IMG/VR virus record: IMGVR_UViG_3300028840_004790
Source of the DNA: a virus
Reading direction: 5' to 3' (one strand)
Length of the DNA: 47,121 bases
In this document: one piece after another, positions 22,218 to 37,745 of the stretch
Position numbering within the stretch: position 1 is the stretch's first letter
Layout of the letters: the number at the start of each line of letters is the position of its first letter
Position numbers and translations under genes: made by a program
The notes under the pieces: model-generated
Seen by the model: the letters and a program-made list of their open reading frames with translations, nothing else
What the model was told of the DNA's origin: nothing
Database searches by the model: none

Positions 22218-22491
22218 TCGAAAAATAACGATTTACAGTGCGGCGGGGATTTTCCTATATTATATATTCCCTGTCTTTAATTAAACGGGGGAAGGGGGGA
22301 GAGTATCCTACTCCCCGCCGCACCATAAGTCGTTTGTTTCCGTGGTCAGTCACTCAAAACCTACCAATATGGGTAGTATACCAAATCTTGACACCGTGTA
22401 ATTTTTACCTGGTTAAGAGACCGTGGGAGGATTCGAACCTCCATAGGTCCATAGCTCCCGGGGCCGGGCCCCCAACCCACGCTCCCCGGGC

Positions 22492-23187: not shown

Positions 23188-23208
23188 GTTTTTGCTCCTT
23201 TCACTACC

Positions 23209-23237
23209 AGTGTAACACATAACCGTAAAATTGTCCA
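23209..23237 (-). promoter_or_regulatory. Candidate promoter TGGACA-17-TACACT
   Basis: The minus strand reads cTGGACAattttacggttatgtgtTACACTggtagtgaaaGGAGc upstream of ATG 23187. Confidence 0.4.
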
Positions 23238-23267
23238 GAAATATCCAAAGCCCCGCCCACGTTCCGG

Positions 23268-23420
23268 TTACGCCTCCTCGTAGGCTTTCATGTCCGGTCT
23301 GACTACGTCGCGGCCCGTGTCCTTCACAAGGTCGCGGATCCGTTCCAGGGCGTCAAGGACTTCCTGGTCCTGGTCGTTAATGACGTCTTGAATCAGGTCG
23401 AGTGCAACATGATCGTCCAT
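23268..23420 (-). CDS. Hypothetical acidic small protein (50 aa) MDDHVALDLIQDVINDQDQEVLDALERIRDLV...
   Basis: Not in the ORF track; ATG preceded by AAAGGAG; clean acidic helical sequence. Confidence 0.45.
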   Translation of the reverse strand: MDDHVALDLIQDVINDQDQEVLDALERIRDLVKDTGRDVVRPDMKAYEEA

Positions 23421-23491
23421 TGCTATACTCCTTTGCGTATAATGGTTAACGATACGGACTTGCGTATAAATCTGTTACGCCCCCAAGCCCA

Positions 23492-23692
23492 CTACGTGTG
23501 CGCTTTCAGGATCTCTAAAACTTCCCAGAGAAGATCGGTACCTTCCTCGTCCGAGTTTTCCCAGTCTCTTGGAGGCACTCTTGGTTTGGACAAATCCTCC
23601 TCACGGCGACAAAGTGAACTGCGGTAAGCTGCCCAATCTTTCATGCGGGCAACCAGTTCTTTCCTGATCGGTATCAACATGTGGTCGCTCAT
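23492..23692 (-). CDS. Hypothetical protein (66 aa)
   Basis: ORF starting 3 nt after the GP88-like stop. Confidence 0.55.
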   Translation of the reverse strand: MSDHMLIPIRKELVARMKDWAAYRSSLCRREEDLSKPRVPPRDWENSDEEGTDLLWEVLEILKAHT

Positions 23693-23694
23693 AG

Positions 23695-24390
23695 TTACCT
23701 CACAAATTGTACCGAACTCTTGACCGCGGCGCCCTTTGCCTTCAGGCCCACGATCACGCCCTTGGGATCCAGCCAGCGGGCGTCATGGGTGTCTCCGTCG
23801 ATCACGGGCACATGTCCGTGTTCCATTTCGAGTCCGGGTGGTACGTCGTGGAATACCATGGCGACGGTTCCTCCCCACCGTAGTATAGCGCTCAAATGCC
23901 TTGAACTACTTGGACTGGCAGAAAAGGTCAAATGATAGTTCTTTGGGAAAACAGAAGTTCTGCGCCATTCTTGGTATCTCACTAACCCTTTGGTGTAATC
24001 GTAAAACTGTACGTCAGGGTGTTCGGTGAACAGATCCGGAGCGATACGTTCCCACCTCAGATCCGACAGGCCGTTCAGGCGTACCGCAACGGGTTTGCCC
24101 AGTCGCTTTCCCTTGCGTTCCAGGACCGTGATATCCTTGTGCAGCTGGGCAACGAACCCGGCCCTGTCGTTCTTGAACCATTCCGTACGACGCACCCTTG
24201 CGGCCCTGGCACTGTCGAACTTGAGGCGCCCGGACGTATTCAGGCATGTTGCCTCACACCCATCCGCATACGGACAGGTATTCATGCACCCTGACTCCTT
24301 GTGCGGCGCCAGGAACAGTACCGCAGTAAGGTAGCCTGTGCCCTTGTTGGTCTTGGCGATCTTCGCGCTGGATTCACTTAGTAGCTTCAT
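23695..24390 (-). CDS. GP88-family (mycobacteriophage gene 88-like) protein, function unknown
   Basis: 'KLLSESSAKIAKTNKGTGYLTAVLFLAPHKESGCMNTCPYADGCEATCLNTSGRLKF...ARVRRTEWF' follows the family N-terminal pattern as I recall it; start at the second Met behind GGGAGGT. Confidence 0.6.
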   Translation of the reverse strand: MKLLSESSAKIAKTNKGTGYLTAVLFLAPHKESGCMNTCPYADGCEATCLNTSGRLKFDSARAARVRRTEWFKNDRAGFVAQLHKDITVLERKGKRLGKPVAVRLNGLSDLRWERIAPDLFTEHPDVQFYDYTKGLVRYQEWRRTSVFPKNYHLTFSASPSSSRHLSAILRWGGTVAMVFHDVPPGLEMEHGHVPVIDGDTHDARWLDPKGVIVGLKAKGAAVKSSVQFVR

Positions 24391-24515
24391 AGTACCTCCC
24401 ATATTGAGTCATAGCCATAGAACACACGCCGCGCAGCCATGATAGCCATGCGGTGCGACAGGCCGTCCTGGCGCAGGGCCCAGTACACGAGACAGGCAGC
24501 CATGGTATGCTTCAT
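24387..24515 (-). CDS. Hypothetical small protein (42 aa) MKHTMAACLVYWALRQDGLSHRMAIMAARRVFYGYDSIWEVL
   Basis: GGAGCAAACT-ATG RBS; its stop forms an ATGA overlap with the next gene; first gene after the promoter. Confidence 0.5.
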   Translation of the reverse strand: MKHTMAACLVYWALRQDGLSHRMAIMAARRVFYGYDSIWEVL

Positions 24516-24554
24516 AGTTTGCTCCTTTCGTTTTTTGTTTTTTCGAGTCAAGCA

Positions 24555-24583
24555 AATTTACCATGAAAGCAAGGTTTTGTCAA
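24555..24583 (-). promoter_or_regulatory. Sigma70-type promoter TTGACA-17-TAAATT with an A/T-rich upstream element
   Basis: The minus strand reads cttaaaaaattttTTGACAaaaccttgctttcatggTAAATTtgc, 39 nt upstream of ATG 24515. Confidence 0.55.
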
Positions 24584-24595
24584 AAAATTTTTTAA

Positions 24596-24628
24596 GAACA
24601 AAAAAGAAAAGGATTTAGGGCGGCGCCC
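24596..24628 (-). terminator. Short GC hairpin plus T-rich tract (terminator candidate) just upstream of the promoter
   Basis: The minus strand reads GGGCgccGCCC followed by taaatccttttcttttttg. Confidence 0.4.
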
Positions 24629-24750
24629 AACAAATTAAAATTTATTTAATAGAATGCAAGAATTAGGCCAAGAATTAAATCTGTTCCGTAACAGGGCCAG
24701 ATACTGTAGTGTGGTGTGGTAGGTTGGTCCCGGTGTGGTATGGTGCTGGT

Positions 24751-24805
24751 GCTGGTGCAGGGCTGGTGTAGGGCTGGTGCAGGGCTGGTGCAGGGCTGGT
24801 GCAGT
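24751..24805. repeat. Five tandem 11-bp repeats (iteron-like)
   Basis: gctggtgcagg / gctggtgtagg / gctggtgcagg / gctggtgcagg / gctggtgcagt, preceded by a degenerate ggtgctggt. Confidence 0.9.
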
Positions 24806-24952
24806 GCTTGTACAGATACAGAGCCTGTATGTACCAGAATTTGACAGATTCACCAGTGTATGGAAATCATACAGGCCTCCGGCCCAGCGCCCTGTTCCTA
24901 CTGCCTAAGTCCTGTCCTGGCCTGCACCTGGCGCTGTGCACACAGCAGTGCC

Positions 24953-24976
24953 GGGGTGGGGGTGGGGCCCGGGGGG
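24953..24976 (+). other. G-quadruplex-capable tract
   Basis: GGGGtGGGGGtGGGGcccGGGGGG: four G-runs of at least 4 with loops of 1, 1 and 3 nt, in non-coding DNA. Confidence 0.6.
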
Positions 24977-25047
24977 TTTCCGCGCATATATGTACTTAGT
25001 ATGTGGTTATGTAAATAAGTCACTACTGGGTCCTTTGTGGGCCCCAA

Positions 25048-25161
25048 TCACTTTCCTCGGACCGCAAGGAGTTTCAGGAGCTGGTCCTGTTGGTTGACCA
25101 TCCTTTCAACGATTGTCAGCATTCGGCTCAGCTGGTCATTGTACGTATTGAGCCGATCCAT
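25048..25161 (-). CDS. Possible small coiled-coil ORF (37 aa from the ATG; frame open a further 26 codons upstream)
   Basis: MDRLNTYNDQLSRMLTIVERMVNQQDQLLKLLAVRGK; moderately high third-position GC; no clear RBS. Confidence 0.25.
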   Translation of the reverse strand: MDRLNTYNDQLSRMLTIVERMVNQQDQLLKLLAVRGK

Positions 25162-25190
25162 ACCGACATTGATCTGTGCCAGAATCTGCT

Positions 25191-25538
25191 CTAAGGCATA
25201 TTTCTTCTCTTGCTCTGTCCTGGTCTTTTCCTTTCCGAGTCATGTAACTCTCTATGACAGTTCGCGCAAACGACCAGGCACTTACTCACCTCGTCCCTGA
25301 GCCGGTCCATGCCCATGTTACTAAACTGCTCTGACCTGTCTCTGCCCTGTACATGGTGGAACTCGAGGGCCGCGGCGCAGCACCGGTACCGACAGAAGCA
25401 GCAGCCGCAGCTTAGTTTCAGTTCCGCGATGAACCGGCGGTGGGCCGCCATCCATCGGCGCTTGTACTGGCGGCGGTTCAGCTGATCTATTCGTTGATAC
25501 ACTTCATCGACCCAGGCGCCAATACTCATACGGGCCAC
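25191..25538 (-). CDS. HNH endonuclease
   Basis: 'CGCCFCRYRCCAAALEFHHVQGRD' and 'CLVVCANCHRELH'. Confidence 0.85.
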   Translation of the reverse strand: MARMSIGAWVDEVYQRIDQLNRRQYKRRWMAAHRRFIAELKLSCGCCFCRYRCCAAALEFHHVQGRDRSEQFSNMGMDRLRDEVSKCLVVCANCHRELHDSERKRPGQSKRRNMP

Positions 25539-25879
25539 CGCGCTTCGTCCTCCTTGATCAGGCGGCGCACCAGGTCCTGCTGGTGCCCCATGTCACGCAG
25601 CGACCGACACGCGAGCCGGTACTCGCCGGCCAGGGCCCGCAACTTCTCGTCGTCTGAAAAGAGCAGGACCGCCTTCTCGACGTTGATCGGGCCCTTGATC
25701 CGGAGTGAGCTCAGGCTGTGCTGGATCACGCCCCGCAGCCCGTACGTGTCGATCAGGAGTTTTTTCAGTCGCGGGGCCCACCCCGGGACCGTGTAGATCT
25801 CCACTCGGGCCCCGGGGTAGTCCTTCCGGAGGCGCCAGCACCAGTTGGTGAAGTCATGGGGTTCGTAGGTGGTAGCCAT
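25526..25879 (-). CDS. Hypothetical protein (117 aa)
   Basis: ATG 25879 behind AAGGA; MATTYEPHDFTNWCWRLRKDYPG... Confidence 0.6.
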   Translation of the reverse strand: MATTYEPHDFTNWCWRLRKDYPGARVEIYTVPGWAPRLKKLLIDTYGLRGVIQHSLSSLRIKGPINVEKAVLLFSDDEKLRALAGEYRLACRSLRDMGHQQDLVRRLIKEDEARWPV

Positions 25880-26096
25880 CGTGGGGGTCCTTTTTGAACT
25901 TGGCGCCGCAGGCCAGGCACACAAACGGGTGCGACTGGCCCGCGGTCACGGCCATGGTGGTGTGGTGGCATACGACACCGTCTTCGGTGATTTTGGTGCT
26001 TTGCCGGATCTGTTCCTGCCACCACCGAGCGGCGCGGCCAGTGTCGTCGTTCTGGGCCGCGGCCTGTTTCAGGATCTCGTTCATATCTTCAGACAT
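25854..26096 (-). CDS. Hypothetical protein with a Cys/His cluster (80 aa)
   Basis: ATG 26096 behind GGAGGAAG; 'VVCHHTTMAVTAGQSHPFVCLACGAKF'. Confidence 0.6.
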   Translation of the reverse strand: MSEDMNEILKQAAAQNDDTGRAARWWQEQIRQSTKITEDGVVCHHTTMAVTAGQSHPFVCLACGAKFKKDPHDGYHLRTP

Positions 26097-26674
26097 CTCA
26101 CTTCCTCCACAGGCGTGTCCCAGCCTTTCGAGCACTGAGAAAACCAACGCCTGAATTCTTTCATAGTGTGGGGTTTGTCATGGACCGCTAGGATCCTGTT
26201 ACTTAACGGGACGCCCCGTTCAATGTGGACCCAAGACTTTCGGAACCGCATAAAGGCGTACTCCCACAAATCTTTCCAGGTGGTTCGTAAGGTCTCGTCT
26301 TCCAGGACCTTGGGTTTGTACTGGTGCCAACCGGCCGCGTACAGGCGCCCGTTGTCGATCGTGTTGGTCATTTCGTGGATCATGAAGCCCGGGGCCCGGT
26401 CCTCTAGCCAACAGAAGAAGTTCGGGAAGACGCCCCGGTTCTGGGGGTTCCCGAGGTGGATGTTGATCGGGGGGCGCCGGACCGCCCCGAGCATGTCGGG
26501 GGGTATGATCCACCGGTACCCGTCGCTAATTATCAGATCCCACTGAGGAGCCTCAGGAGCCCACAGGCGGGGTTTGCGGGTTTCGACCTTCAACGAGCCC
26601 TGGACGGCCAAAAAGTCGCACAGCGGCGAAGTACGGGGCCGTGAGGGGGATGTGAGCAGGAGTATGTTCACCAT
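26081..26674 (-). CDS. Formyltransferase-fold protein (Formyl_trans_N-like)
   Basis: 'DLIISDGYRWIIPPDML...PPINIHLGNPQNRG...GFMIHEMTNTIDNGRLYA' follows the layout DlivvagY..ilp...iNiHpSlLP.yRG...G.tvh.....D.G.i (Asn-His...Asp). Confidence 0.65.
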   Translation of the reverse strand: MVNILLLTSPSRPRTSPLCDFLAVQGSLKVETRKPRLWAPEAPQWDLIISDGYRWIIPPDMLGAVRRPPINIHLGNPQNRGVFPNFFCWLEDRAPGFMIHEMTNTIDNGRLYAAGWHQYKPKVLEDETLRTTWKDLWEYAFMRFRKSWVHIERGVPLSNRILAVHDKPHTMKEFRRWFSQCSKGWDTPVEEVRCLKI

Positions 26675-26928
26675 TTCCTCCGGATCTTGTCTGGGCTGAA
26701 GTCGGCCAGGCCCGCGGTCCGCTCCTGGGGCGGCCGGTCCTTCCGGTGCATCCGGGCCTGGATTGTCCTAAGTACAGACCGGAGCCGTCGTTCCCGGCAC
26801 GGTGGCGGGACCCGGTTCACCTTTTTCAGGATCATTTCCCGCTCCAGCCATATCTGACCTAACTCCTCGTCATACCCCCACTTACCTGCAAGCTCTATAA
26901 CACGTTCCAGTTTCATTACTTCCGTCAA
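26668..26928 (-). CDS. Hypothetical protein, first gene of the leftward arm
   Basis: 86-aa ORF starting 17 bp from the divergent + strand gene. Confidence 0.6.
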   Translation of the reverse strand: MTEVMKLERVIELAGKWGYDEELGQIWLEREMILKKVNRVPPPCRERRLRSVLRTIQARMHRKDRPPQERTAGLADFSPDKIRRKW

Positions 26929-26945
26929 AACTCCATAAGGGTGAG

Positions 26946-27344
26946 ATGACTGTTACAGACATGGTCAATGCCACCCTCGGCCAGACGGCACGGTCAGAGT
27001 ACCAGAGGGGCGCTGTGGTTGACAACATCGCCGGCGTTTACCTGCTGTATCAGAAGGACAAGTTGCTTTACGTCGGACAAACGTACAATGTGAATCAGCG
27101 ACTGATCCAGCACCAGGAGAAACCATTTACTCATGCTATAGTATACCACATCAACGAGCTGGTGTCAAGGCTTCGAGTAGAGGGGATCCTGATTTTATGG
27201 CTCCTACCTGAGCTCAACCGCGGAATGAACCTCGGTCTCTGTAAAGGCAAGGTCTGGGAAGTTAAATGGCGAAGAAGCGGGTCGGGACCCGCCAAAAGAA
27301 AAAGAACGAGCCCCAGCGTCGCACGGCGCTCTCGCCCGCAGTAG
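26946..27344 (+). CDS. GIY-YIG domain protein
   Basis: 'AGVYLLYQKDKLLYVGQTYNVNQRLIQH'; the last ~25 codons run out of frame over the next gene. Confidence 0.7.
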   Translation: MTVTDMVNATLGQTARSEYQRGAVVDNIAGVYLLYQKDKLLYVGQTYNVNQRLIQHQEKPFTHAIVYHINELVSRLRVEGILILWLLPELNRGMNLGLCKGKVWEVKWRRSGSGPAKRKRTSPSVARRSRPQ

Positions 27345-27913
27345 CGAAGGCCTGGGAAGCCGCCCTCAATGTGGACGATCAGGAGCTCGCCCGGTTCGTA
27401 CCTACGGAACCGGTGCTCCGGATGGGGGAGGCCCTCCTTGCCGGGAGTACGACGCTCGTAGCGATCGCCGATTACTCCGGGATGACAGAGCCGGAGGTCC
27501 GGGACACGATAGCTGATCCACTGGCCATGGCCTGGGTCAGTCGCCAGATTCATCAAATTTTCCGGCACCGGGCCGGGCTGGTCGATGCCGCCCTGTTCCA
27601 GGCCGCCATGCGCGGTGACGTGCCGGCGATCAAACTGTTCTACGAACGCATGGGCCAGCTCAGTCGCGTCGTTGAACACAAGCACTCATACTCCGGAGGG
27701 GTGAAGCTGGACACCTGCTCTGACGAGGACCTACGCCGGATTATTCGTGAAAACGCAGCCCGACTCCCCGCCGAGTTTAGAATTATCGACCAGACAGAGG
27801 CTGGAACAGACGTACAAGGCGCAGATGATCCTGGACCGGAGGATCAAAGCGGCGCCCCTACTGTACTACCGGAACCTGATCAAGAACCACAGGAAACAGA
27901 CACAGTTTCATGA
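27266..27913 (+). CDS. Terminase small subunit candidate
   Basis: Directly upstream of terL; basic N-terminus; helical 'AMRGDVPAIKLFYERMGQ'; third-position GC drops after ~27790 although the frame stays open to 27913. Confidence 0.55.
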   Translation: MAKKRVGTRQKKKNEPQRRTALSPAVAKAWEAALNVDDQELARFVPTEPVLRMGEALLAGSTTLVAIADYSGMTEPEVRDTIADPLAMAWVSRQIHQIFRHRAGLVDAALFQAAMRGDVPAIKLFYERMGQLSRVVEHKHSYSGGVKLDTCSDEDLRRIIRENAARLPAEFRIIDQTEAGTDVQGADDPGPEDQSGAPTVLPEPDQEPQETDTVS

Positions 27914-29381
27914 AGCTGGTAAAACGTATCGTCGCCGGTTTTTCTTCGGTGCTAACCAGAGTGGCAAGACTACTGCCGGGGGTCACGAAGCGCTCGGACA
28001 TAGTTACGGGTACCGTTTCTGGGAAATTCCAGATCTCCGACTCACCCCGGATGGTGACCTTCCTCCTCGAGATCACATCGATCCAGCCTTCTGGATCCGA
28101 CGTCCGGACGGGATCCCCATCAAAGTCCCGAATCTTGGAGTCATTACCACCGGACTTTCTCGTGGAAGGGGAATTGGTGAGAACCTGTGGCCGTTCCTTG
28201 AAGGGATTCTACCTCAGGCTTTGCGACGCCGAAAGTCCGGACTCCACGTAGTCCGGGGCCAGGGTGGGATCCCGGAGAAGTTCACGCTCCCGAACGGGAG
28301 CCGGGTAATTTTCAGTTCCGAGGAGCAGGACGATTTCCAGTTTGAGGGGTTTGTGGCGGACTGGTGGTGGTGCGACGAACCAGTCCGGCAAAAGATCTAC
28401 AACGCCATGCAGGCCCGGCTCGCAGCGAACCTGGGGCCGATGTGGTTCACCCTAACGCCGCTCGGGGCCCGGTCCGCCTGGATGATGCCATTCTACCGGG
28501 AGCCGCCCGACGACGTGTACATCGTCCAGGTGGTGCAGCGGGACAACCCGGCCATGACCGCCGACAAGCGGAAGGCGTTCGAGGAGGCCGGCGAGTGGCC
28601 GGAACGGGAGAAGGCCGCCCGGCTCCGGGGCGAGTTCGAGGTAATGGGCGACCGGGTCTATGAAGAGTACGATCCCGATGTGCACCTGGTCGACGACTTT
28701 GCCATCCCCAGGGACTGGGTCCGTGGCTTGACGGTTGACCCGCACCACAAGCGGCCGGCGTTCATGCTCTGGTGGGCATATGATCCCAACACACAAACTT
28801 ACTATTTTTACCGAGAGTGGCCCAATTACGATTTCTTCAAAGCGCGGTCGGGTGGTCTTACACCTGTCGAGTACGCAACAATCATTAGAAATGCCGAGGG
28901 CCGTTTTCCAGCAAGCCGTCGCATCTGCGATCCACGATTTGGTAAAGCAGAGCATCAACGGCACGGGTACAAAGAAACGTGCTGGGTCGACCAAATGGCC
29001 GACGTCGGGCTCGACTTCGACGCACACGTCCCGAACACCGGGAACCTCGAGTACCGACACCAAGTAATTTCCAAGATGCTCCGGTGGGACAAACGGTTCG
29101 AGATCGGGCCGTCGAACCAGCCCCAGATCATGGTGTTCCGGAGCCTGACGAACTTAGACAAGGCCTTTCGCCACTACGGGTACCTCGACGTGGACAACCC
29201 CGTCAAGGGCCTGTTCAAGAAGGTCAGTGAAGAATTCAAGGACCCCATGGACACTGTCGCGTACACTGTCCTGTGTCCACCGCCGCTAACCGCCGCCGAG
29301 GTAAAGGCGCTCCAACGCTGGACGCCCGAAGATTTGGAAAAGGAAAACACAGCTGACGATCTATGGAGTGATTATGGGTAA
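27747..29381 (+). CDS. terL: Terminase large subunit
   Basis: Walker A 'GANQSGKTTAG', Walker B 'ADWWWCDEP', C-terminal nuclease-size domain; GTG 27747 (alternative ATG 27825). Confidence 0.9.
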   Translation: MKTQPDSPPSLELSTRQRLEQTYKAQMILDRRIKAAPLLYYRNLIKNHRKQTQFHEAGKTYRRRFFFGANQSGKTTAGGHEALGHSYGYRFWEIPDLRLTPDGDLPPRDHIDPAFWIRRPDGIPIKVPNLGVITTGLSRGRGIGENLWPFLEGILPQALRRRKSGLHVVRGQGGIPEKFTLPNGSRVIFSSEEQDDFQFEGFVADWWWCDEPVRQKIYNAMQARLAANLGPMWFTLTPLGARSAWMMPFYREPPDDVYIVQVVQRDNPAMTADKRKAFEEAGEWPEREKAARLRGEFEVMGDRVYEEYDPDVHLVDDFAIPRDWVRGLTVDPHHKRPAFMLWWAYDPNTQTYYFYREWPNYDFFKARSGGLTPVEYATIIRNAEGRFPASRRICDPRFGKAEHQRHGYKETCWVDQMADVGLDFDAHVPNTGNLEYRHQVISKMLRWDKRFEIGPSNQPQIMVFRSLTNLDKAFRHYGYLDVDNPVKGLFKKVSEEFKDPMDTVAYTVLCPPPLTAAEVKALQRWTPEDLEKENTADDLWSDYG

Positions 29382-29574
29382 GAAACGCAGACCACAAGGA
29401 TTTGGGCGTGACAACAAGTACACCGTAGAGGGAATTAAAAAACAGCTCGGTTCAGAGTACAAAGACAGTGCCCTTCAAAGGGCCCTTGATAAAGAGATGC
29501 GCCGCCGGCACGGTGACGTAACAGGTGCCGCAAACCGGGCGGCAACAAAGGCCCGACGGAGAAAAGGAAAATGA
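29368..29574 (+). CDS. Small basic protein (68 aa; alternative ATG 29374)
   Basis: K/R-rich; overlaps the terL stop. Confidence 0.55.
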   Translation: MIMGKKRRPQGFGRDNKYTVEGIKKQLGSEYKDSALQRALDKEMRRRHGDVTGAANRAATKARRRKGK

Positions 29575-29813
29575 AGAAGCTCTACGCAGCGATTTTTGTG
29601 TTTATGGTTACGTTCCTGTACGGGTGCGGGACCATTGACGGGGTGGTTGGGTACGATCCCACAACTGGCGTGGTGGCCCCGGACGCGCCTATCAATACTG
29701 TGATCGATACCGCTGAGGGTTTCGGTCCCTGGGGCGCCATTGTGGCCGGGGCGCTCGGTCTGTTGGCGGGCGGGTACGTTCTGGTGCGTAAGATCCAGAA
29801 AAAGTTGAAGTAA
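29571..29813 (+). CDS. Lipoprotein with C-terminal TM helix (unimolecular-spanin-like topology)
   Basis: Signal peptide plus lipobox 'FVFMVTFLYGC'; C-terminal 'WGAIVAGALGLLAGGYVLV' followed by RKIQKKLK. Confidence 0.6.
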   Translation: MKKLYAAIFVFMVTFLYGCGTIDGVVGYDPTTGVVAPDAPINTVIDTAEGFGPWGAIVAGALGLLAGGYVLVRKIQKKLK

Positions 29814-29849
29814 TGTTGATTCTGGATCCATTATTTGGAGGCGACGACG

Positions 29850-29984
29850 ATGCCTAAGAAATTGGAACGCGAACTGAAACAAAAAGCAAAAAAGAAGTTC
29901 GGTTCCACTACTTCGGAGAGGGCGCGTCGGTACATTTATGGCACGTTGCGGGAGACCGGGTGGAAGCCGAAACGGGGGCGATGA
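29850..29984 (+). CDS. Small basic protein (44 aa) MPKKLERELKQKAKKKFGSTTSERARRYIYGTLRETGWKPKRGR
   Basis: Not in the ORF track; GGAGG RBS; its stop forms an ATGA overlap with the next gene. Confidence 0.5.
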   Translation: MPKKLERELKQKAKKKFGSTTSERARRYIYGTLRETGWKPKRGR

Positions 29985-30262
29985 GCTCGCCGCGCAAAGT
30001 TGCACTCCTTGATCTGGATGGGGTCGTGTTCCCAAACGGCTCCGATGAGATGCTGCCCAATGCCAAGGAAGGCATTCTCAAGCTCGCGGAGGACGGTTAC
30101 GATATCTATCTGTTCTCGTGCGGGGCTAACAAGTGCCGGGTCGCCCAGCTCACGTCATTTGTCCGGATCCACGGAGCAATCGCCAAACCCTTGGCGGACG
30201 AGTATCTGATCGTAGACGACAAGATCAATCTCCTGGACAGTACCACAGGGTTCCCGGAATGA
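29981..30262 (+). CDS. Minimal HAD-superfamily phosphatase-like protein
   Basis: Motif I 'LLDLDGVV'; candidates for motifs II 'LFSCG', III 'AKPL' and IV 'IVDDK' within 93 aa. Confidence 0.55.
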   Translation: MSSPRKVALLDLDGVVFPNGSDEMLPNAKEGILKLAEDGYDIYLFSCGANKCRVAQLTSFVRIHGAIAKPLADEYLIVDDKINLLDSTTGFPE

Positions 30263-30876
30263 TCACGTTCCATCTAATCAAGTGCTTTGAGGGCCCGCGT
30301 CACGATAGGCTCAGGGCCATCTGGAACAAGCTCGCGTACCAACACCGGGACCGCATGGGGCTGGTCTGGTGGGAAAATCCTGGCGCCCAGTTACAACATC
30401 AACACTGCCTGGCTCTGATCTGGGAAGGGATCCAAGAACTCCCGGGCCGGTACCACGTTATCACGGAACACGACTTTCTACCCGGCCCCGGCGGGCTCGA
30501 CCCGCCGCGGGCCCCGATCGAGGCCGCAGAGTATGTCACAAGAACCCCAGACGGAAAACAAACCGCCCACGGCTACCCCGGCGCCTGGTGGCTCGGGTTC
30601 GACCTCGAAGCGATACATCGTGATCGCCTCCCAGTCAATCTCGCTGCCGGTGGCCCGTGCAATGACCCAGCAAATCTCCTCGAAGGGGCGACGCTCTTGG
30701 CTAATCGGGACCCTTGGCCTGATAGCTACGGTACGGTGGTCGGTGACAAAGGGGAGCACCTCTTCTGGTCACGACACTATAACGATCCGGTATGGGCTCG
30801 TCCAGCCGGTTTTAACCTCGGGGATATCCTTGAAAAGGTAGACAGTAGGATCGCCGCGTATGAAGCTACTTTCTAA
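30259..30876 (+). CDS. Hypothetical protein (205 aa)
   Basis: ATGA overlap defines the start; W-rich globular sequence; no motif assigned. Confidence 0.6.
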   Translation: MITFHLIKCFEGPRHDRLRAIWNKLAYQHRDRMGLVWWENPGAQLQHQHCLALIWEGIQELPGRYHVITEHDFLPGPGGLDPPRAPIEAAEYVTRTPDGKQTAHGYPGAWWLGFDLEAIHRDRLPVNLAAGGPCNDPANLLEGATLLANRDPWPDSYGTVVGDKGEHLFWSRHYNDPVWARPAGFNLGDILEKVDSRIAAYEATF

Positions 30877-31111
30877 ATTGTGGCGGAGGCTCTACGGCCC
30901 ACCGCCGGAACCTGGCCAATTCAAACCGTCGGCTTGGGCTCGTGGGGACGGTGCTTGTCTTGGCTGGACCAATGTAACGGTTTGCCAAGACTGCGGCGCT
31001 ACTGGTTATTATTGGTCCTACCATCCGGCCAGCCCCTGTCACCTGTGCGGAGGAATCCGTCGGGAAGGCACCGGCATTTGGCGGGGTACCCGCTGGGAAC
31101 GGAAGCCGTGA
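30860..31111 (+). CDS. Zinc-ribbon protein (83 aa)
   Basis: 'CQDCG...CHLCG' paired CxxC motifs. Confidence 0.55.
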   Translation: MKLLSKLWRRLYGPPPEPGQFKPSAWARGDGACLGWTNVTVCQDCGATGYYWSYHPASPCHLCGGIRREGTGIWRGTRWERKP

Positions 31112-31722
31112 GGAAGGTTTCAGTTGACGAGTTCATAAAATCTTTTGGGTGCTCGTTCGAGCCACAGGACCATCACTTTACGGGACCCCCTCAGTTCCAC
31201 CAGCCTGAAGGGCACGGTTCGGTGTTTCACGACGAGGGCAAGGTCCTGGCCAATCTGGCTTTCATGCAGGGCTCGGCTGTAGAGATCGGCACTGATCAGG
31301 CCGTCTCCACACGGTATATTGCCGAAGGGCTCCGGCGCGGAAACGACATCGACGGCGCCACCTTGGCCAGCACGGTCTACACAATTGACTGTCTCCAGCG
31401 TTGGAAAGACCACCCGGAATGGCCTGAGATCTGGGCCCTTTCGGCCAAGGCCGAGGACATGCCGATCGGGCACTGGAAGTGCAACTGGGCCTTCATTGAC
31501 GGTGACCATAGCTACGAGGGGGCCGCGAAGGACATCAAACAGATCCGGGACGAGACCCGGATCGATATCATGTTGTTCCACGACTGCGGCAAGGCCGTCC
31601 AAGGCCAGGAGTTCGACCCGGGTCAGTTCATAGACGTGCGCCGGGCAGTACTAAACCACTTGGGAGACTGGAAGCTGACCGAGATCGACACGAAGCTGGG
31701 GATGATTTATGCAGAACGTTGA
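31108..31722 (+). CDS. Class I SAM-dependent methyltransferase (Methyltransf_24-like)
   Basis: GTGA overlap start; motif I 'AVEIGTDQAVST' and 'FIDGDHSYEGAAKDI'. Confidence 0.65.
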   Translation: MRKVSVDEFIKSFGCSFEPQDHHFTGPPQFHQPEGHGSVFHDEGKVLANLAFMQGSAVEIGTDQAVSTRYIAEGLRRGNDIDGATLASTVYTIDCLQRWKDHPEWPEIWALSAKAEDMPIGHWKCNWAFIDGDHSYEGAAKDIKQIRDETRIDIMLFHDCGKAVQGQEFDPGQFIDVRRAVLNHLGDWKLTEIDTKLGMIYAER

Positions 31723-32422
31723 CCTCGGCGTGATGATCCTGGTCCACAAGCGCCCGTGGCCGCTCCGGCTGATCGTGGAACAGATCAGTGAGGCCTGGCC
31801 CAATAGCATTATTCAGCTGACAGAGGACCGGTGCGAGTTGGACATCGCCTCGATCTTGGATGGTACTGAGGGCGCTGTTAGTCAAAGGGCTCCGTTTCCC
31901 GTCGTCGACGAGAACGGCGAGCACTTTATGGTCATGCGCCAGTGGCAGCTCGAACAGATCCGTAAGTACAATCCCAAGTACATTGGCTTCTGGGACGACG
32001 ACCACCTCCTGGAGGACCCGGACGAAGTGAAGCAGTACATGACCATGGGCGCCGACATCATCGACATGAAGAAGGCGTTCTTTTGGGACGACTTGGAACA
32101 CACAAACGAAAGGATCCCACCGCATGTCTCGCCTGTCTTTTTTAAGGACCGCCCTGGTACGTCCTTCCCGGACACCGAAAGTCGGATCATACACTGCCCA
32201 GTGGGAATCCATGACGACCCTGCCTCCGTGCGCGTGGTCACAAATAGCCGGCTCCTCGACGTCGGATACCTCGACGCCGCCGAGCGGGCCCGAGTCTGGG
32301 CAGCCTACAAAGAAGCAGGAAAAATAGACGCCGCGACCATGGCGCTGGTGGAGGACCCCCAGCTGGTGAAATTTGAGTCGGAGATGCCGGCCTACAAGCA
32401 GTTACTGAACGGTAAAAAATGA
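31709..32422 (+). CDS. GT-A fold (family 2-like) glycosyltransferase candidate
   Basis: 'LGVMILVHKRPWPLRLIVEQI' N-terminal strand-helix and 'IGFWDDDH' DxD-type motif. Confidence 0.5.
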   Translation: MQNVDLGVMILVHKRPWPLRLIVEQISEAWPNSIIQLTEDRCELDIASILDGTEGAVSQRAPFPVVDENGEHFMVMRQWQLEQIRKYNPKYIGFWDDDHLLEDPDEVKQYMTMGADIIDMKKAFFWDDLEHTNERIPPHVSPVFFKDRPGTSFPDTESRIIHCPVGIHDDPASVRVVTNSRLLDVGYLDAAERARVWAAYKEAGKIDAATMALVEDPQLVKFESEMPAYKQLLNGKK

Positions 32423-34521
32423 GTCTTTCAAGACAGAATCCGCTCGATTTGAGCACGCTCGGGAACATGGGCGGTGAGTCCATTTTGATCCAGGTCAAGG
32501 ACCTGGACCGGCGCATCAAGCAGGCCGCCTCGGCCCGACACACCTGGATGCATAAGCAGGAGAAGCTGTTCCGTCAAAGACTCGGGATCCGGCGCAAGAA
32601 AGTGTTCCCCTGGCCAGGGGCCAACAACCACAACTGGCCCCTGGTCGATAAAGTGATCCGCCGGTGGAAACCGTCCATGGCCGCGCTCATTACCCAGTCC
32701 GATCCGGTGGCCCACTTTTTCCCACTCAACACCGCGGGGGTCCGGGCCAAGGACGACGTCGAGGCGTACTATCACTACAAGTTCAATTCGATCGAGAACG
32801 TCGAGGACACCGTTATGGAGCTCCTCGAGTACGTGGCCCAGCACGGCAAGGGCTATACGATCCAGGGCTGGAACTATCAGACCGAGCGCCAATGCCGGAT
32901 CATTTTCGCTCGGTCCCTGTTCCCGCAAGGTGTCGAGGCCGCGGTGGAGCAGTTTAACGCCCGGGTTGAGCAGGCCCGCACTGAAGCCCAGCAGGCCATT
33001 GACGCGGGACAGGCGCCCGCGAACGCGTTGGACCAGATCCCGGCACCGACAACCCCCGAACAATTCGTCATGGACACGCTCCAGGACGAATATAACCTTC
33101 GACAAGACAACCCTTTAGAGTACGACCAGATCGTCCAAGTCACCGAGAAGATCCTGGCCGGGGCCGAGAAAGTCAAGATCTACTACCGGATCGTGCGGCA
33201 CGACAAGCTGTCCTGGGTTGCTGTCAGCCCCCTGGACGCGATCGAGCCGCCCCGGAATCAGAAAGTGGACGACGCCGAGTACATTGCCTTCCGTCACCGG
33301 TTCAGCGCCGATGACCTGATGAAAATGGCCGTCGACGGGCACTTCATCCCACAAGCGGTCGCCGGCGTGGTAGAGAAGATGAAGTCCCGGGCCATGAGCG
33401 ACCCGGAACGGAACAACAACTTCGAGGGCCTGAGCGTTGGGAATCGGCTCAATATCACCACGGTCCTGGACCGATCGGACGGAATCGATAACGGTCGGGT
33501 CGAGGAGCCGAACCAGGACGACTTTCTCGAAGTGTACTGTAAGATCGATATCAACGGGGACGGTATCAAGGAACGGTGCCGGCTCTGGTACCATCCCGAT
33601 CTCCGCACCGAGCCGAGAGAGGGCTCCGATACAGGACCGTTCGGGGGGACTATTCTGGCTCTGTATGCGTTGCCGTTCTCGTTTTCCGAGTGGCCGGTGG
33701 TACGCCACGAGTTCGAGCACCGATCGAACCGCCCCTATGGTTCCCGCGGAATTGCAGAGCACCTTTCGGTCCACCAGGCGACAAAGAACAAGCTCCATAA
33801 TGCTCGGCTCGACGCCGGTCAGATCATGCTCTCACCGATGATGGCGATGCGCGTGACGGGCAACGAGATGAAGCGGAACATCAAGTACATGCCGGGCTCG
33901 ATCATCCCAGTTTCACAACCCGGCGATATCGCCCCGCTCACATTCGACACGTCCAATCTCTTGGCCTCGATCAACGAAGAAAACATCACGTCCCGAGACG
34001 CGGAGGAGTACATCGGGGTCTTCGACCCGGGTGTCCTGGCGGAAGGCACGGCCGAGCGCCGGACCGCCACCGAGGTCGACGCGATCATGCAGCAGACCCA
34101 GTCCATATTCGGCCAGGACGCGAGGCTGCTCCAGGCCAACATGAAAAAGGTCCACAAACAGCTGTGGCACCTCCTGCTTGATTTCGGCCCGGACGAGGAG
34201 TACTTCCGAGTGATCGGCGAAGACATGCCCCGGCTCATGAAGAAGCACGAGATTGCCCACGACTATGACATCGTCCCGGCGGGCACCCCGGCGAATACGT
34301 CCCGACAGCTGGCCATGGCCCGCGCCCGAGAGGCTCTGGGGGCGTTCCTGAACGACACATCGGGGCTGGTGAACAAACACGAACTCATCAAGTGGTACTT
34401 CAATACCCTTGACCGCAACATGGCCAAGCTCGTGGTGCGTACGCCGGAACAGGCCGCACTGATTCAACAAATGTTCCAGACTGTTGCCCAGTCCGGGCAG
34501 CAGCCTGCAAACCCTCCGTAG
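32419..34521 (+). CDS. Portal protein
   Basis: 700 aa; first large gene upstream of the scaffold/capsid pair; ATGA overlap with the upstream gene. Confidence 0.75.
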   Translation: MSLSRQNPLDLSTLGNMGGESILIQVKDLDRRIKQAASARHTWMHKQEKLFRQRLGIRRKKVFPWPGANNHNWPLVDKVIRRWKPSMAALITQSDPVAHFFPLNTAGVRAKDDVEAYYHYKFNSIENVEDTVMELLEYVAQHGKGYTIQGWNYQTERQCRIIFARSLFPQGVEAAVEQFNARVEQARTEAQQAIDAGQAPANALDQIPAPTTPEQFVMDTLQDEYNLRQDNPLEYDQIVQVTEKILAGAEKVKIYYRIVRHDKLSWVAVSPLDAIEPPRNQKVDDAEYIAFRHRFSADDLMKMAVDGHFIPQAVAGVVEKMKSRAMSDPERNNNFEGLSVGNRLNITTVLDRSDGIDNGRVEEPNQDDFLEVYCKIDINGDGIKERCRLWYHPDLRTEPREGSDTGPFGGTILALYALPFSFSEWPVVRHEFEHRSNRPYGSRGIAEHLSVHQATKNKLHNARLDAGQIMLSPMMAMRVTGNEMKRNIKYMPGSIIPVSQPGDIAPLTFDTSNLLASINEENITSRDAEEYIGVFDPGVLAEGTAERRTATEVDAIMQQTQSIFGQDARLLQANMKKVHKQLWHLLLDFGPDEEYFRVIGEDMPRLMKKHEIAHDYDIVPAGTPANTSRQLAMARAREALGAFLNDTSGLVNKHELIKWYFNTLDRNMAKLVVRTPEQAALIQQMFQTVAQSGQQPANPP

Positions 34522-34529
34522 GAGAAGAA

Positions 34530-34811
34530 ATGGCAAACATCAACAGTGTTGTTACCTGGGATGCCGTGGGCGGCGCCATCAACTATGAAGTCGAGCTCTC
34601 GGACACCAGCGGGAATGTTCTGGCTGTGAAAACAGTGGCCGGGACCTCGATCCCAATCGGCAGTGTGATCGACGGCGCGGCTGTGGTGGTCGGGTCGGTC
34701 TATAAGGTCCGGGTCCGGGCCATCGGCCCCCTCGGCCCCGGCGTCTGGTCCATCAAGGTTCAGTTCACACTCGAGGGCCTGTCGGCCCCGATCAACGTGG
34801 AGATCGTGTAA
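34530..34811 (+). CDS. FN3/Ig-like domain protein (decoration candidate)
   Basis: 'VTWDAVGGAINYEVEL...YKVRVRAIG' FN3-like pattern; GGAGAAG RBS. Confidence 0.55.
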   Translation: MANINSVVTWDAVGGAINYEVELSDTSGNVLAVKTVAGTSIPIGSVIDGAAVVVGSVYKVRVRAIGPLGPGVWSIKVQFTLEGLSAPINVEIV

Positions 34812-34814
34812 CCA

Positions 34815-35177
34815 ATGATGCGCTACCGCCGCCTGCCCCTCGAGGATGAGCTCGAACGGGTAGAACAAGAAGACAAAGAAGCGTTCTTTAAAGCTCGATC
34901 CGCCTACTTGGTAGAAACGCTCAAAACTCGCGGATTCCAGCTCATTACTGGTCTCCTGCGGAATCAAGAGAAGTTCGCCCTGGACATGCTTCGTGTCCGT
35001 CGAGATGACCCGCAGTACTTCCTCGGCTGGCTTCACTGTATTAGCGAAATCCGTCGTCTGATTACTTCGCAACTACCCGAGAGTGCTCAGACGACTCTCG
35101 ATTGGTCCAATGAAGAAGAGGAAGCGTTCCTCATTATGGACGAGTCGCAACCATCGGGTGAAGGGGAAGAAGAATAA
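34815..35177 (+). CDS. Hypothetical acidic protein (120 aa)
   Basis: ORF between the portal and the scaffold. Confidence 0.6.
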   Translation: MMRYRRLPLEDELERVEQEDKEAFFKARSAYLVETLKTRGFQLITGLLRNQEKFALDMLRVRRDDPQYFLGWLHCISEIRRLITSQLPESAQTTLDWSNEEEEAFLIMDESQPSGEGEEE

Positions 35178-36079
35178 TGCCGGACGACGTACTTCCAGAC
35201 GCATTGCCCATACCGGAAGAGACCGTTCTTGAAAAGGGAGCGGACATTACAGGAGTGAAATTACCCAGCCTATCGGACCCGGAAGAGGTCCCGGCGTCGC
35301 CTGTGAAGGAAGGCGCTGTGGCCCCGGAAGTGGACGCCGATGCTGGTGTCATCCAACCGAAACCAAAACGGGATTTTCAGTCCCGGATCAACAGCCTGAC
35401 TCGCAAGCGTAGGGAGGCAGAGGAACAGAACTCGGTTCTGTCCCAGCAGCTCAACTTTGTGACTCAGCAGCTGGAAGACCTGCGCCGGCAGGCACGTCAG
35501 CCAGTGGTTCAGCAGCCGCCTCTTGCGCCTGCTGGTACGCCTATAGACGCTTTCGGCGGTGGCGAGGGTCAGCCCCCCGCGCCCCCGGCCGCGCCATCGG
35601 CTGAGGAAATTGCGGCTATTGTGTTACAACAGCTCAACGGCTATGCACAGCAGCAGCAGCAGGCGCAGCAAAAGGCCGACACGCTCCGACTCCAGCAGGA
35701 AGAGTCTTTCGGGGAAGCCCTGGAAGATATTCCGGACCTGGCAGACGGACGCACCCAGGCCGGAAAGCTGTTCAACCAGCTGTGGGCCCAATCGCCCCTG
35801 CGGAATGACCCGAACGGGCCGTTCCACGTTGCCATGACTGTCAGAGGCCTGTTGGCTGACGGCGCTGGAAATGGCCAACCGTCTCGAGCAACGGAAACGC
35901 AGAAACTCCAGGCCGCGACCTTTGCTCCAAAACCTTCAACAACGGATGTCCCGGAGATCGGACGCCAGCAGCTTGAGCAGGCTTATGCCAAGGCTATGCA
36001 GGCCTACAGCCAGGGCGACAAGGCTGCTTATGCAGCTGCGCGGAAGATCAGAGGGGAGATCAACAAACTCAACAGGTAA
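35177..36079 (+). CDS. Scaffolding protein
   Basis: Immediately upstream of the capsid gene; Q/A/E-rich coiled-coil segments (YAQQQQQAQQKADTLRLQQEE); Pro/Ala linker. Confidence 0.7.
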   Translation: MPDDVLPDALPIPEETVLEKGADITGVKLPSLSDPEEVPASPVKEGAVAPEVDADAGVIQPKPKRDFQSRINSLTRKRREAEEQNSVLSQQLNFVTQQLEDLRRQARQPVVQQPPLAPAGTPIDAFGGGEGQPPAPPAAPSAEEIAAIVLQQLNGYAQQQQQAQQKADTLRLQQEESFGEALEDIPDLADGRTQAGKLFNQLWAQSPLRNDPNGPFHVAMTVRGLLADGAGNGQPSRATETQKLQAATFAPKPSTTDVPEIGRQQLEQAYAKAMQAYSQGDKAAYAAARKIRGEINKLNR

Positions 36080-36082
36080 CCT

Positions 36083-37018
36083 ATGGCTCTTTTGACTTGG
36101 CAGGAGTTTACTGCCGCGGCCCGCCCGCAGGGTGGGTCGATCCCTGAGGACCTGCGTGACTTCGTGGAGAATGTCAGCCCGGTCGACCGGCCGGCGCTTG
36201 GCCTTTTCCGGAAGTCCCGGGTCAACACAACCTTCATCGAGTGGATGGAGGATTCCCTTCCTTCCAGGGCGCACAACGCCTACATCGAAGGTGTCCAGGC
36301 GACCGACCAGGCGCAAACGACTCCTTCCCGTACGTTCACGCACGTCCAGCAGTTCGCTCGCTGGGGGTACGTGTCCGACACCCAGAGGTCGGTGGAGCAC
36401 AAGGGCTTCAACGATATGTACCTCTACCAGGAGCAGAAGGCTGTCGAATCGACACTGAATGACATCGAGCACGCCCTCCACCGCGGATCGGCGGCCACCG
36501 GTGCCACCAGTGCAGCCCGGCAGTTCGGCGGGCTCCTGAACGTCCTCTCCACGAACTTCACGGACAGTTCCGGAACGACCCTCACCGAGGAAGTCTTCGG
36601 CGATCTGATCCAGCTGTACGTGGACAACAACGTTGACATCCGGCCCAACACGGCGTTTGTCAACGCTCTCATCAAGCGGACGATTTCGCTCTACTCCACG
36701 AAGCTGCGCTACAACATCCCCGCGATGGCGAAGACGCAGATGCTTGTGGTCGACAAGTACGAGAGCGACTTCGGCAACGTCGACATCTACTTCAGCCGCG
36801 ACCAGCTGAAAAGTGCCTCGAAGACGACCTACGGAAACTCCGTGGTCCTGCTCGACCCGAGCTACTTCGAGGTTGGGTTCCTCACCCCGCTGAGAACCGA
36901 GACGCTCGCCAGGGACGGTCTCCGGACCAGGTTCCAGGTCAGCGCCGAGGCGACCATGATCTACCGGACCGAGAAGGCCGGTGGAGGCGGGACGGGGTTC
37001 GTGCCCTACATCGCTTAA
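36083..37018 (+). CDS. Major capsid protein (HK97-fold type, SU10/DUF5309-like by recall)
   Basis: 311 aa after the scaffold; 'TTFIEWMEDSL' N-terminal motif; very high third-position GC; followed by a strong terminator. Confidence 0.8.
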   Translation: MALLTWQEFTAAARPQGGSIPEDLRDFVENVSPVDRPALGLFRKSRVNTTFIEWMEDSLPSRAHNAYIEGVQATDQAQTTPSRTFTHVQQFARWGYVSDTQRSVEHKGFNDMYLYQEQKAVESTLNDIEHALHRGSAATGATSAARQFGGLLNVLSTNFTDSSGTTLTEEVFGDLIQLYVDNNVDIRPNTAFVNALIKRTISLYSTKLRYNIPAMAKTQMLVVDKYESDFGNVDIYFSRDQLKSASKTTYGNSVVLLDPSYFEVGFLTPLRTETLARDGLRTRFQVSAEATMIYRTEKAGGGGTGFVPYIA

Positions 37019-37048
37019 CCCTTTGCTTGGGCCGGCCGTATGCTGACG

Positions 37049-37085: not shown

Positions 37086-37745
37086 ATGTCAAGCCGCAAG
37101 AAAGATTATCGTCAAGAGCTCGGCCGGTTCGACATCCACATGAAGACCGGCAAGGAACAGTTCCTCCAGGAGTTAGGAACTTGGTGGCACAAAATGTACC
37201 CCGCCAAGGCCGACTTCTTTCGGACCTGCCTGAAACGTATGAAAGAGGTCACGGTCGAACACGGCCGGGTGGACCTCGGCAAGGGCCGGGAAATGTATCT
37301 CCGGTACCGGGTACCGACAGAGCTCATGATGTTCATCCAACGTTGGATCCCAGACTTCGGCCGTGACGACAAGGATCTGGATCTGTTGGCTCGGGTTTGG
37401 TGCGACCTGATCCATCCAACCAAGGACTACCGCCGCCGCACCAGGCTGTACGTTACAGGAGACATTCGCCGTGTCGCGCAAAACAAAGGCAAAAAGAAAG
37501 GCTCGAAGAAAAGCCAATCGCGGACCGACTCAGAAGAAGGAGCGGACCACCGCACCCGTCAGGACAATTCGGATCGGCCCTTCAACTCAGATCGGGCAGT
37601 CTTCAATCCCGGTCTCAGTAACGATCATCGCCAAGAATGCCGAGACGACGCTTCCGGAGACGATCAAGAGCCTGAAAGCGAACTTTTTGCACGCCTGCGA
37701 CGAGCTTTTAGTTCTCGACACAGGAAGCACGGACAAGACAGCTAA
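37086..37745 (+). CDS. Hypothetical protein; coding character for ~130 codons, then the frame runs on over the GT gene
   Basis: MSSRKKDYRQELGRFDIHMKTGKEQFLQELGTWWHKMYP... is coherent; after ~37500 third-position GC favours the GT frame. Confidence 0.5.
   Translation: MSSRKKDYRQELGRFDIHMKTGKEQFLQELGTWWHKMYPAKADFFRTCLKRMKEVTVEHGRVDLGKGREMYLRYRVPTELMMFIQRWIPDFGRDDKDLDLLARVWCDLIHPTKDYRRRTRLYVTGDIRRVAQNKGKKKGSKKSQSRTDSEEGADHRTRQDNSDRPFNSDRAVFNPGLSNDHRQECRDDASGDDQEPESELFARLRRAFSSRHRKHGQDS

Follow-up and report, generated by a model that had tools for sequence, protein, structure and literature searches.

What separates the genes for the large terminase subunit (TerL) and the portal protein in the genome of an uncultured tailed phage, and what might the intervening genes do? 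The question is raised by IMG/VR virus record IMGVR_UViG_3300028840_004790, a genome-sized stretch of 47.1 kb (47,121 nucleotides; the window, below, is this whole stretch), in which eight co-directional open reading frames (ORFs), named g1 to g8, occupy the gap between the two genes. We estimate a probability of roughly three in four that this cassette encodes glycan-building enzymes that act together, its main components being two unrelated putative glycosyltransferases (GTs) of the GT-A fold, g5 and g8, and a methyltransferase of the Methyltransf_24 family, g7. That virion proteins are the target of these enzymes is, in our judgement, an even call.

The two bordering genes are real, both being matched by Pfam and PHROG families (Table 1), and TerL is 32-65% identical to its counterparts in the relatives described below. 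The original prediction, which was made by inspection of the letters, spoke of a nine-gene cassette; the count is eight, as is the sum of the genes that it itself listed, and one of the eight, g6, is doubtful. Its proposal of translational coupling through ATGA and GTGA overlaps was borne out. The junctions from TerL through g1 to g8 and into the portal gene measure -14, -4, +21, -4, -4, -17, -4, -14 and -4 nt, so that overlaps of 4-17 nt are found at all junctions but one, the sole gap of 21 nt standing before g3 and the last overlap (ATGA) entering the portal gene. On the + strand no terminator-like site is found from 26500 to 37048, a position after the capsid gene, and no promoter-like site above chance occurs inside the cassette. 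Because of the overlapping junctions and the absence of both a terminator and an internal promoter, we read the cassette as forming a single unit with terminase, portal, scaffold and capsid. The coding signal from codon statistics is clear for g2, g4, g7 and g8, weaker for g1, g3 and g5 and absent for g6. The sequence motifs quoted in the prediction are all present, namely DLDGV and VDDK in g4, VEIGTDQAVST and FIDGDHSYE in g7 and FWDDDH in g8.

The prediction had listed g5 as a 205-aa unknown, and this description has to be replaced. The AlphaFold2 (AF2) model of g5 (predicted local distance difference test, pLDDT, 97; predicted template modelling score, pTM, 0.92) adopts the GT-A topology, and its best solved match in Foldseek is the PBCV-1 capsid glycosyltransferase A64R (2p6w, 3.1e-4). 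The next matches in the PDB, BoGT6a, LH3, SpsA, B4GalT7, STIV A197 and mimivirus R699, are all GT-A proteins, with some nucleotidyltransferases lower in the order, and a library of viral structures yields phage and giant-virus GT-A proteins (best 2.6e-5); the TM-scores of the fold matches are only 0.35-0.53. GT-A enzymes have their DxD motif where a beta strand ends. In g5 the residues E70-H-D72, an ExD rather than a DxD, stand at the end of beta strand 65-70, as assigned by DSSP on the model, and within the family of 157 members D72 is retained in 100%, H167 in 99%, D136 in 98% and E70 in 97%. With the fold taken from AF2 and Foldseek and the ExD and His motifs from these 157 sequences, g5 is identified as a second GT-A protein, unrelated to g8, and at 205 aa it is among the smallest of its kind. 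Paralogy of g5 and g8 was considered and rejected (hhalign probability 0.3).

The g5 family comprises 151 representatives in 1.84 billion proteins and is unnamed: neither g5 nor ten distant family members have a Pfam match, g5 has no PHROG or NCBIfam match either, and the g5 profile run against PDB sequences returns sulfatase noise only. The coding signal of g5 is weak, but its homologues confirm it as a real gene. It is the most conserved gene of the cassette and is present in every related locus that covers the region.

The assignment of g8 as GT-A-like, in contrast to that of g5, could be kept. Its AF2 model (pLDDT 87.7, pTM 0.85) is a single alpha/beta/alpha domain, Rossmann-like and with GT-A topology, for which Foldseek gives 83 PDB matches at E <= 1e-3, the best being COLGALT1 (4.6e-7, TM 0.5), followed by SunS, WrtF and SpsA; among the top matches listed, most are GT-A glycosyltransferases, with a few nucleotidyltransferases interleaved. 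The triplet D96-D97-D98, which follows strand 91-96 (DSSP on the model), is invariant in 16 homologues of 24-67% identity, together with H13, R15 and H139. COLGALT1 (GLT25D1, family GT25) is a protein-glycosylating GT-A enzyme, the collagen galactosyltransferase, and it also provides the best sequence match of g8 (E 0.015-0.09), a weak one that scores far below family thresholds and spans WDDDH, which is aligned with VDADN. It is the N-terminal half of COLGALT1 that contains the matched segment; g8 consists of one domain of 237 aa. Seven close homologues of g8 were found in a collection of 5.8 billion proteins, more occur at the same position in IMG/VR loci, and the protein has no Pfam, NCBIfam or PHROG family match, so that it belongs to a second unnamed family.

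The third enzyme, g7, was predicted to be a Methyltransf_24-like methyltransferase, and it is confirmed above the Pfam gathering threshold (33.0 bits, GA 26.3), the alignment covering profile positions 1-105 of 105; its homologues in three related loci (L002, L003 and L015) also match this family. It carries the S-adenosylmethionine (SAM)-binding motif VEIGTDQAVST and a metal-type D-G-D-H within FIDGDHSYE, and D131, H134 and H158-D159 are invariant in nine sequences. Its GTG start at 31108 is supported by the homologue in the closest relative (L001), which begins at the same MRKVSVDEF. With a nine-member g7 profile the best solved relative is 6g7d (E 2.5e-3), which is probably the sugar 1-O-methyltransferase MeT1 of Mycobacterium hassiacum. 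MeT1 is a mycobacterial sugar 1-O-methyltransferase (PMC9883506). The alignment of g7 with 6g7d covers EIGTYCGKST and FIDGGH, that is EIGT..ST and FIDG(D/G)H, so that g7 resembles 6g7d and Methyltransf_24 in its SAM-binding and metal motifs, albeit with a weak PDB match; unlike them, the g7 family has an extra conserved N-terminal segment, DHHFTGP...GSVFHEEG. Sugar O-methylation is the reaction suggested by the gene neighbours and the weak match to 6g7d. The possibility that g7 is a DNA methyltransferase was rejected, its family being Methyltransf_24 and its match to a PHROG DNA methyltransferase reaching only E 0.045.

The HAD-like phosphatase of the original prediction, g4, is a weak assignment. 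All four candidate HAD motifs can be seen by eye (I, D11-L-D13-G-V; II, S46; III, K69-P; IV, D78-D79), but the protein, at 93 aa, is shorter than the usual HAD core and its family scores stay below threshold (Hydrolase_6, E 2.6e-3, 18.2 bits against a GA of 27; HAD-SF-IIIA, E 1.2e-3, 18.9 bits against a cut-off of 44.6). It matches phrog_1238 with E 1.2e-4 and has no match at E <= 10 among PDB sequences. In three relatives (L012, L016 and L017) a homologue with 38% identity overlaps the 3' end of the gene for a large GT2-TPR-GT4 protein, which in the window lies after the capsid gene; the L012 copy keeps motifs I-III and has DN, not DD, as motif IV.

The wider setting of these genes was examined in about 25 related loci (labelled with L-numbers), which were gathered from protein-cluster look-ups and a g5-family profile search of IMG/VR; direct searches with the DNA against GenBank phages and with the single portal and methyltransferase proteins against IMG/VR gave no close relatives. 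Down to a portal identity of about 30%, the gene order is TerS, TerL, small ORFs, g5, usually g8, portal, scaffold, SU10 capsid, p219 (a small ORF discussed below) and GT2-TPR-GT4. The premise that TerL and portal genes are usually adjacent fails in this clade, where none of the approximately 25 loci has them so, and holds in a distant relative, the nearest GenBank phage MW202718 (Manatee Spring podovirus; L028), whose portal is 26% identical. Since no relative in the clade has an adjacent pair, the gap is a feature of the clade and not a recent insertion. The lipoprotein g2 and g5, together with g8, are clade core genes, g8 being found in most relatives and missing in L005/6 and L008/9. Both g4 and g6 are missing from L001.

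Comparison with a phage in which the two genes adjoin was the synteny check that the original prediction had proposed. In MW202718, 6 nt separate TerL from portal, and none of g5, g8 and g7 is present; after its capsid gene stand a 761-aa homologue of the GT2-TPR-GT4 protein and genes annotated 'gtA' and 'yqgM-like', the 'gtA' product having no Pfam match. Within the clade, all relatives of sufficient length, including L023, have a GT2-TPR-GT4 homologue, so that each of these has both gene sets, as the predicted link between the cassette and this protein would have it. We did not find the cassette conserved in phages without other sugar genes, nor did the methyltransferase or GT-like ORFs turn out to have unrelated folds.

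The methyltransferase and HAD-like genes move between the portal-side site, the site of the large GT gene and an early sugar module. A g7-type methyltransferase adjoins g5 or g8 in the window, L001, L003, L007 and L027, stands far upstream in L002 and lies between the capsid and large GT genes in L015. The occurrence of these mobile methyltransferase and HAD-like genes at both places ties the portal-side and capsid-side sites together. In L004 a g8 homologue is found in the early arm, preceded by a gene with a dATP/dGTP diphosphohydrolase N-terminal domain (dGTP_diPhyd_N) and followed by a Methyltransf_31/25-like methyltransferase and an SDR epimerase, and this module is the counterpart of the early-arm sugar module of the window (Table 1). 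Two short contigs in Gemmatimonadota metagenome-assembled genomes, L026 (JBDHHA010000175.1) and L027 (JBDHFY010000462.1), carry g5 homologues, with the methyltransferase, g5 and g8 in a row in L027; they may be a weak hint of the host or a binning artefact.

Sets of GT and methyltransferase genes in phage structural operons are already known in kind. The mycobacteriophage Corndog (Cluster O) encodes, between portal and protease, an O-methyltransferase, two glycosyltransferases and a GlcNAc-transferase, gp35-38; infected cells produce these enzymes, which went undetected in the virion proteome (PMC4351075). A statement in PMC11600133, citing Freeman et al. 2023, reports that gp35-38 modify both capsid and tail tube. 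As in Corndog and the Che8-type phages of Cluster F, a small set of soluble GTs and an O-methyltransferase is embedded in the head-morphogenesis operon of the window. No sequence relation to Corndog was shown, however, the sole link being a weak fold match of g5 to gp87 of phage Ardmore (1.1e-3), and the position differs, the cassette lying between TerL and portal in an uncultured SU10-like podovirus with a different host. Unlike Corndog, the system of the window is split over two sites and includes a GT2-TPR-GT4 fusion. A second parallel is A064R of PBCV-1, whose two glycosyltransferase activities and sugar O-methyltransferase extend and cap the glycan of the major capsid protein (PMC7826918). 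The enzyme set is the same as in g5, g8 and g7, and the N-terminal GT-A domain of A64R (2p6w/2p72/2p73) is similarly minimal at about 200 aa; A064R is, however, a single protein with three domains, from a giant virus of eukaryotes, where the window has three separate genes, and g5 is only about 13% identical to A64R, with a TM-score of about 0.38 and ExD instead of DxD. Particular to the present case are the two orphan GT-A families as core genes co-translated with the portal, the division over two sites and the unusually small g5.

From the folds, the catalytic-type motifs, the g7 family, the operon structure and the clade-wide conservation and co-occurrence described above, we infer enzymatic activities, donor sugars and an order of steps as follows. 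The proteins g5 and g8 would be soluble, metal-dependent GT-A enzymes, each adding a sugar from a nucleotide-sugar donor; g7 would O-methylate a sugar of the product, and g4 may strip phosphate from a sugar intermediate. All of them would be translated from one late message that they share with terminase, portal, scaffold and capsid. The GT2-TPR-GT4 protein would act as their partner, its TPR part picking the protein substrate and the enzyme priming the acceptor, while the DegT, SDR and formyltransferase-like genes of the early arm would supply an unusual amino sugar as donor. The product would be a short methylated glycan on virion proteins, whether capsid, decoration or portal-proximal.

Several points weigh against this reading. 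The TM-scores of the g5 and g8 fold matches are modest (0.35-0.53), sugar nucleotidyltransferases that share the fold are matched as well, and neither protein reaches a Pfam, NCBIfam or PHROG family. The absence of g8 from some relatives means that it is not essential, and the HAD assignment of g4 is sub-threshold, with no solved relative by sequence. Late timing is deduced from gene position only. By analogy with Corndog gp35-38 and PBCV-1 A064R the acceptor is most plausibly a protein of the virion, and the conserved membrane lipoprotein g2 within the cassette could point to an envelope target instead.

The protein g2 is 61% identical to its counterpart in L001, and lipoproteins of its type stand shortly after TerL in at least 13 relatives and are found in nearly all, making it a core gene of the clade with a conserved position. 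Its build, a lipoprotein signal with a C-terminal transmembrane helix, is the architecture of unimolecular spanins, but the periplasmic part is short for one, at only about 35-60 aa. In T7-like phages, spanin genes sit beside the terminase genes.

It is conceivable, though in our view unlikely, that the enzymes modify a glycan of the host envelope (lipopolysaccharide (LPS) or O-antigen, capsule, S-layer or lipoprotein) and not the virion, with g2 helping at the membrane; this could prevent progeny or rival phages from adsorbing to cells already infected and to debris. The retention of g2 in the block in nearly all relatives is in keeping with such a role, as are the GT-A and methyltransferase sets that are typical of surface-polysaccharide loci and the LPS and teichoic-acid enzymes WrtF, TarP and SpsA among the fold relatives of g8. 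However, no membrane segments are predicted for g5, g7 or g8, their genes form part of the late head operon of what appears to be a lytic podovirus and are translationally coupled to the portal gene, and they co-occur with a TPR-bearing GT encoded beside the capsid gene. Known receptor-modifying GTs, moreover, usually belong to temperate phages, which express them from the prophage, and this also counts against an envelope target.

A further possibility, which we regard as improbable, is that g5, g8 or both are sugar-1-phosphate nucleotidyltransferases, or nucleotide-binding GT-A-like proteins, that supply the GT2-TPR-GT4 enzyme with activated sugars. The Foldseek lists of both models do include GMPPA/B, HddC and RmlA, and a G-P-R-H loop after strand 1 of g5 loosely recalls the GxGxR loop of such enzymes, but the G-G-x-G-x-R signature is absent, glycosyltransferases rank first, and for g5 the RmlA-type matches have probabilities of 0.57-0.84 against 0.99-1.0 for GTs. 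The conserved acidic triplet at a strand end with a downstream His is, in addition, the pattern of a GT-A metal site.

We give as little weight to the idea that the gap serves as a hot spot in which unrelated accessory genes gather, with the GTs, the methyltransferase and the HAD-like gene acting independently. Content between TerL and g5 does vary among the relatives, with HNH-endonuclease-like (CxxC...HH) and other small ORFs, and since HNH-like ORFs have been inserted in some of them the gap is also an insertion hot spot; the absence of g4 and g6 from L001 fits the same picture. Yet g5 is universal and g8 is found in most loci, their catalytic motifs being kept at 24-75% identity, and the methyltransferase stands beside g5 or g8 in five independent loci, a different methyltransferase taking this place beside g8 in L004. 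Hypermodification of the phage DNA by base glycosylation or methylation before or during packaging would explain the position next to the packaging genes, and the strong dGTP_diPhyd_N gene and the nucleoside deoxyribosyltransferase-like gene of the window, the g8 homologue directly after a dGTP_diPhyd_N gene in L004 and the weak PHROG match of g7 could be cited for it, but it is very improbable, given that the main early ORFs include no hydroxymethylase or thymidylate-synthase-like gene, that g7 is a Methyltransf_24 protein whose 6g7d alignment falls on a metal motif typical of small-molecule and sugar O-methyltransferases, that the L004 g8 homologue is flanked on its other side by a methyltransferase and an SDR sugar enzyme, and that the partner GT bears TPR repeats, a protein-binding module.

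Basic ORFs of similar size occupy the position of g1 in L001 and L003, with no detectable sequence similarity to it, and g3 has no significant homologue. The predicted zinc ribbon, g6, does contain two CxxC pairs, but its codon score is negative in all three frames (GC content 0.59 at third and 0.64 at second codon positions), it has no homologue in any relative, L001 included, and no Pfam, PHROG or NCBIfam family match, so that its status as a gene is doubtful. In the gap of several relatives, and not in the window, a basic protein of 47-49 aa (MPAxFDRAVRxGGKVRTKxLPxGKYxH...) is found, with a weak match to DUF4295 (E 1.5e-3).

Elsewhere in the window, p219, which has no family match, shows 33-50% identity to its counterparts in relatives along the first ~110-145 aa. 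Because p219 overlaps the long reading frame of the GT2-TPR-GT4 gene, the true start of the latter probably lies downstream of 37471. A beta-rich ORF directly after the portal gene, p93, has no Pfam match and has a homologue (34% identical) after the capsid gene in L012, L016 and L017; it could be a decoration protein and a candidate acceptor of the glycan. In the early arm, the nucleoside 2-deoxyribosyltransferase-like ORF adjoins the dGTP_diPhyd_N gene, no PurZ-like gene is present among the larger early ORFs, and a formyltransferase-like gene is also encoded in the window. One further ORF matches the Pfam family GP88 ('Gene product 88'). The coordinates of all these features are collected in Table 1.

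Table 1. Location of the genes and sites discussed, in the window unless another locus is given.
Feature	Locus	Coordinates	Strand	Description and matches
TerL	window	27747-29381	+	large terminase subunit, upstream border; Terminase_6N 33.4 bits (GA 22); phrog_2 E 4.9e-16
g1	window	29368-29574	+	68-aa basic protein (isoelectric point, pI, 11.2); overlaps TerL stop by 14 nt; weak coding signal
g2	window	29571-29813	+	80-aa membrane protein; N-terminal lipoprotein signal (LYGC), C-terminal transmembrane helix
g3	window	29835-29984	+	49-aa basic protein (pI 10.8); weak coding signal
g4	window	29981-30262	+	93-aa minimal HAD-like protein; candidate motifs I-IV
g5	window	30259-30876	+	205-aa minimal GT-A-fold putative glycosyltransferase, unnamed family; AF2, Foldseek and motifs
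g6	window	30860-31111	+	83-aa ORF, two CxxC pairs, possible zinc ribbon; gene status doubtful
g7	window	31108-31722	+	204-aa class I SAM methyltransferase, Methyltransf_24 (PF13578); GTG start
g8	window	31709-32422	+	237-aa GT-A-fold putative glycosyltransferase, second unnamed family; stop overlaps portal start (ATGA)
Portal	window	32419-34521	+	SU10 type, downstream border; SU10_portal 58.6 bits (GA 30); phrog_1216
p93	window	34530-34811		93-aa beta-rich ORF
Capsid	window	36083-37018	+	SU10_MCP match
p219	window	37086-37745		219-aa ORF between capsid and GT2-TPR-GT4 genes
GT2-TPR-GT4(GT1)	window	37471-40050	+	after capsid gene; Glycos_transf_2, TPR and Glycos_transf_1 matches
Early-arm sugar module	window	11040-13990		counterpart of the L004 module
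DegT aminotransferase	window	11040-12059	-	early arm; DegT_DnrJ_EryC1 51.3 bits
SDR epimerase/dehydratase	window	12269-13180	-	early arm; Epimerase 35.4 bits
dGTP_diPhyd_N gene	window	13155-13589	-	dATP/dGTP diphosphohydrolase N-terminal domain; E 1.4e-31
Nucleoside 2-deoxyribosyltransferase-like ORF	window	13586-13990		weak match
GP88 ORF	window	23695-24402	-	Pfam GP88, E 2.1e-42
Early-arm module with g8 homologue	L004	2541-5166		
g2-type lipoprotein	L001	413-661		
g2-type lipoprotein	L003	2057-2338		
g2-type lipoprotein	L008	4164-4544		
g2-type lipoprotein	L011	713-1036		
g2-type lipoprotein	L014	8938-9249		
g2-type lipoprotein	L019	1451-1732		
g2-type lipoprotein	L021	4451-4705		
g2-type lipoprotein	L023	9450-9728		
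g2-type lipoprotein	L025	3736-3990		others in further relatives
47-49-aa basic protein	L005	8585-8728		
47-49-aa basic protein	L007	1400-1549		
47-49-aa basic protein	L008	4832-5005		
47-49-aa basic protein	L019	1735-1884		
47-49-aa basic protein	L024	4878-5027		
HNH-endonuclease-like ORFs	L010	3103-3468, 6302-6499		in TerL-portal gap
HNH-endonuclease-like ORF	L024	3856-4110		in TerL-portal gap
Nearest GenBank phage	L028 (MW202718.1)	15036-30811		

Only in a few mycobacteriophages has glycosylation of the virion been shown by experiment; there it weakens the neutralising-antibody response, according to a statement in PMC11600133 that cites Freeman 2023. Extending the present reading to the clade as a whole, we consider it possible, and no more than tentatively so, that in these SU10-like podoviruses glycosylation of the virion belongs to head assembly as a built-in step and is no mere accessory trait, the GT-A pair co-translated with the portal and the GT2-TPR-GT4 protein placing a methylated, possibly amino-sugar glycan on proteins of the capsid or near the portal. 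The value of such a finding would lie in breadth and in new enzyme families and not in a new principle: g5 and g8 would each establish a new glycosyltransferase family, unnamed in databases, and g5, being small, should be easy to express and assay. If the proposal is true, a whole environmental podovirus lineage would make a glycan coat for itself, using four GT domains, a methyltransferase and an amino-sugar supply of its own, and, outside the actinobacteriophages, this would be the first case in a tailed phage of a glycosylation machinery that is core and defines its clade.

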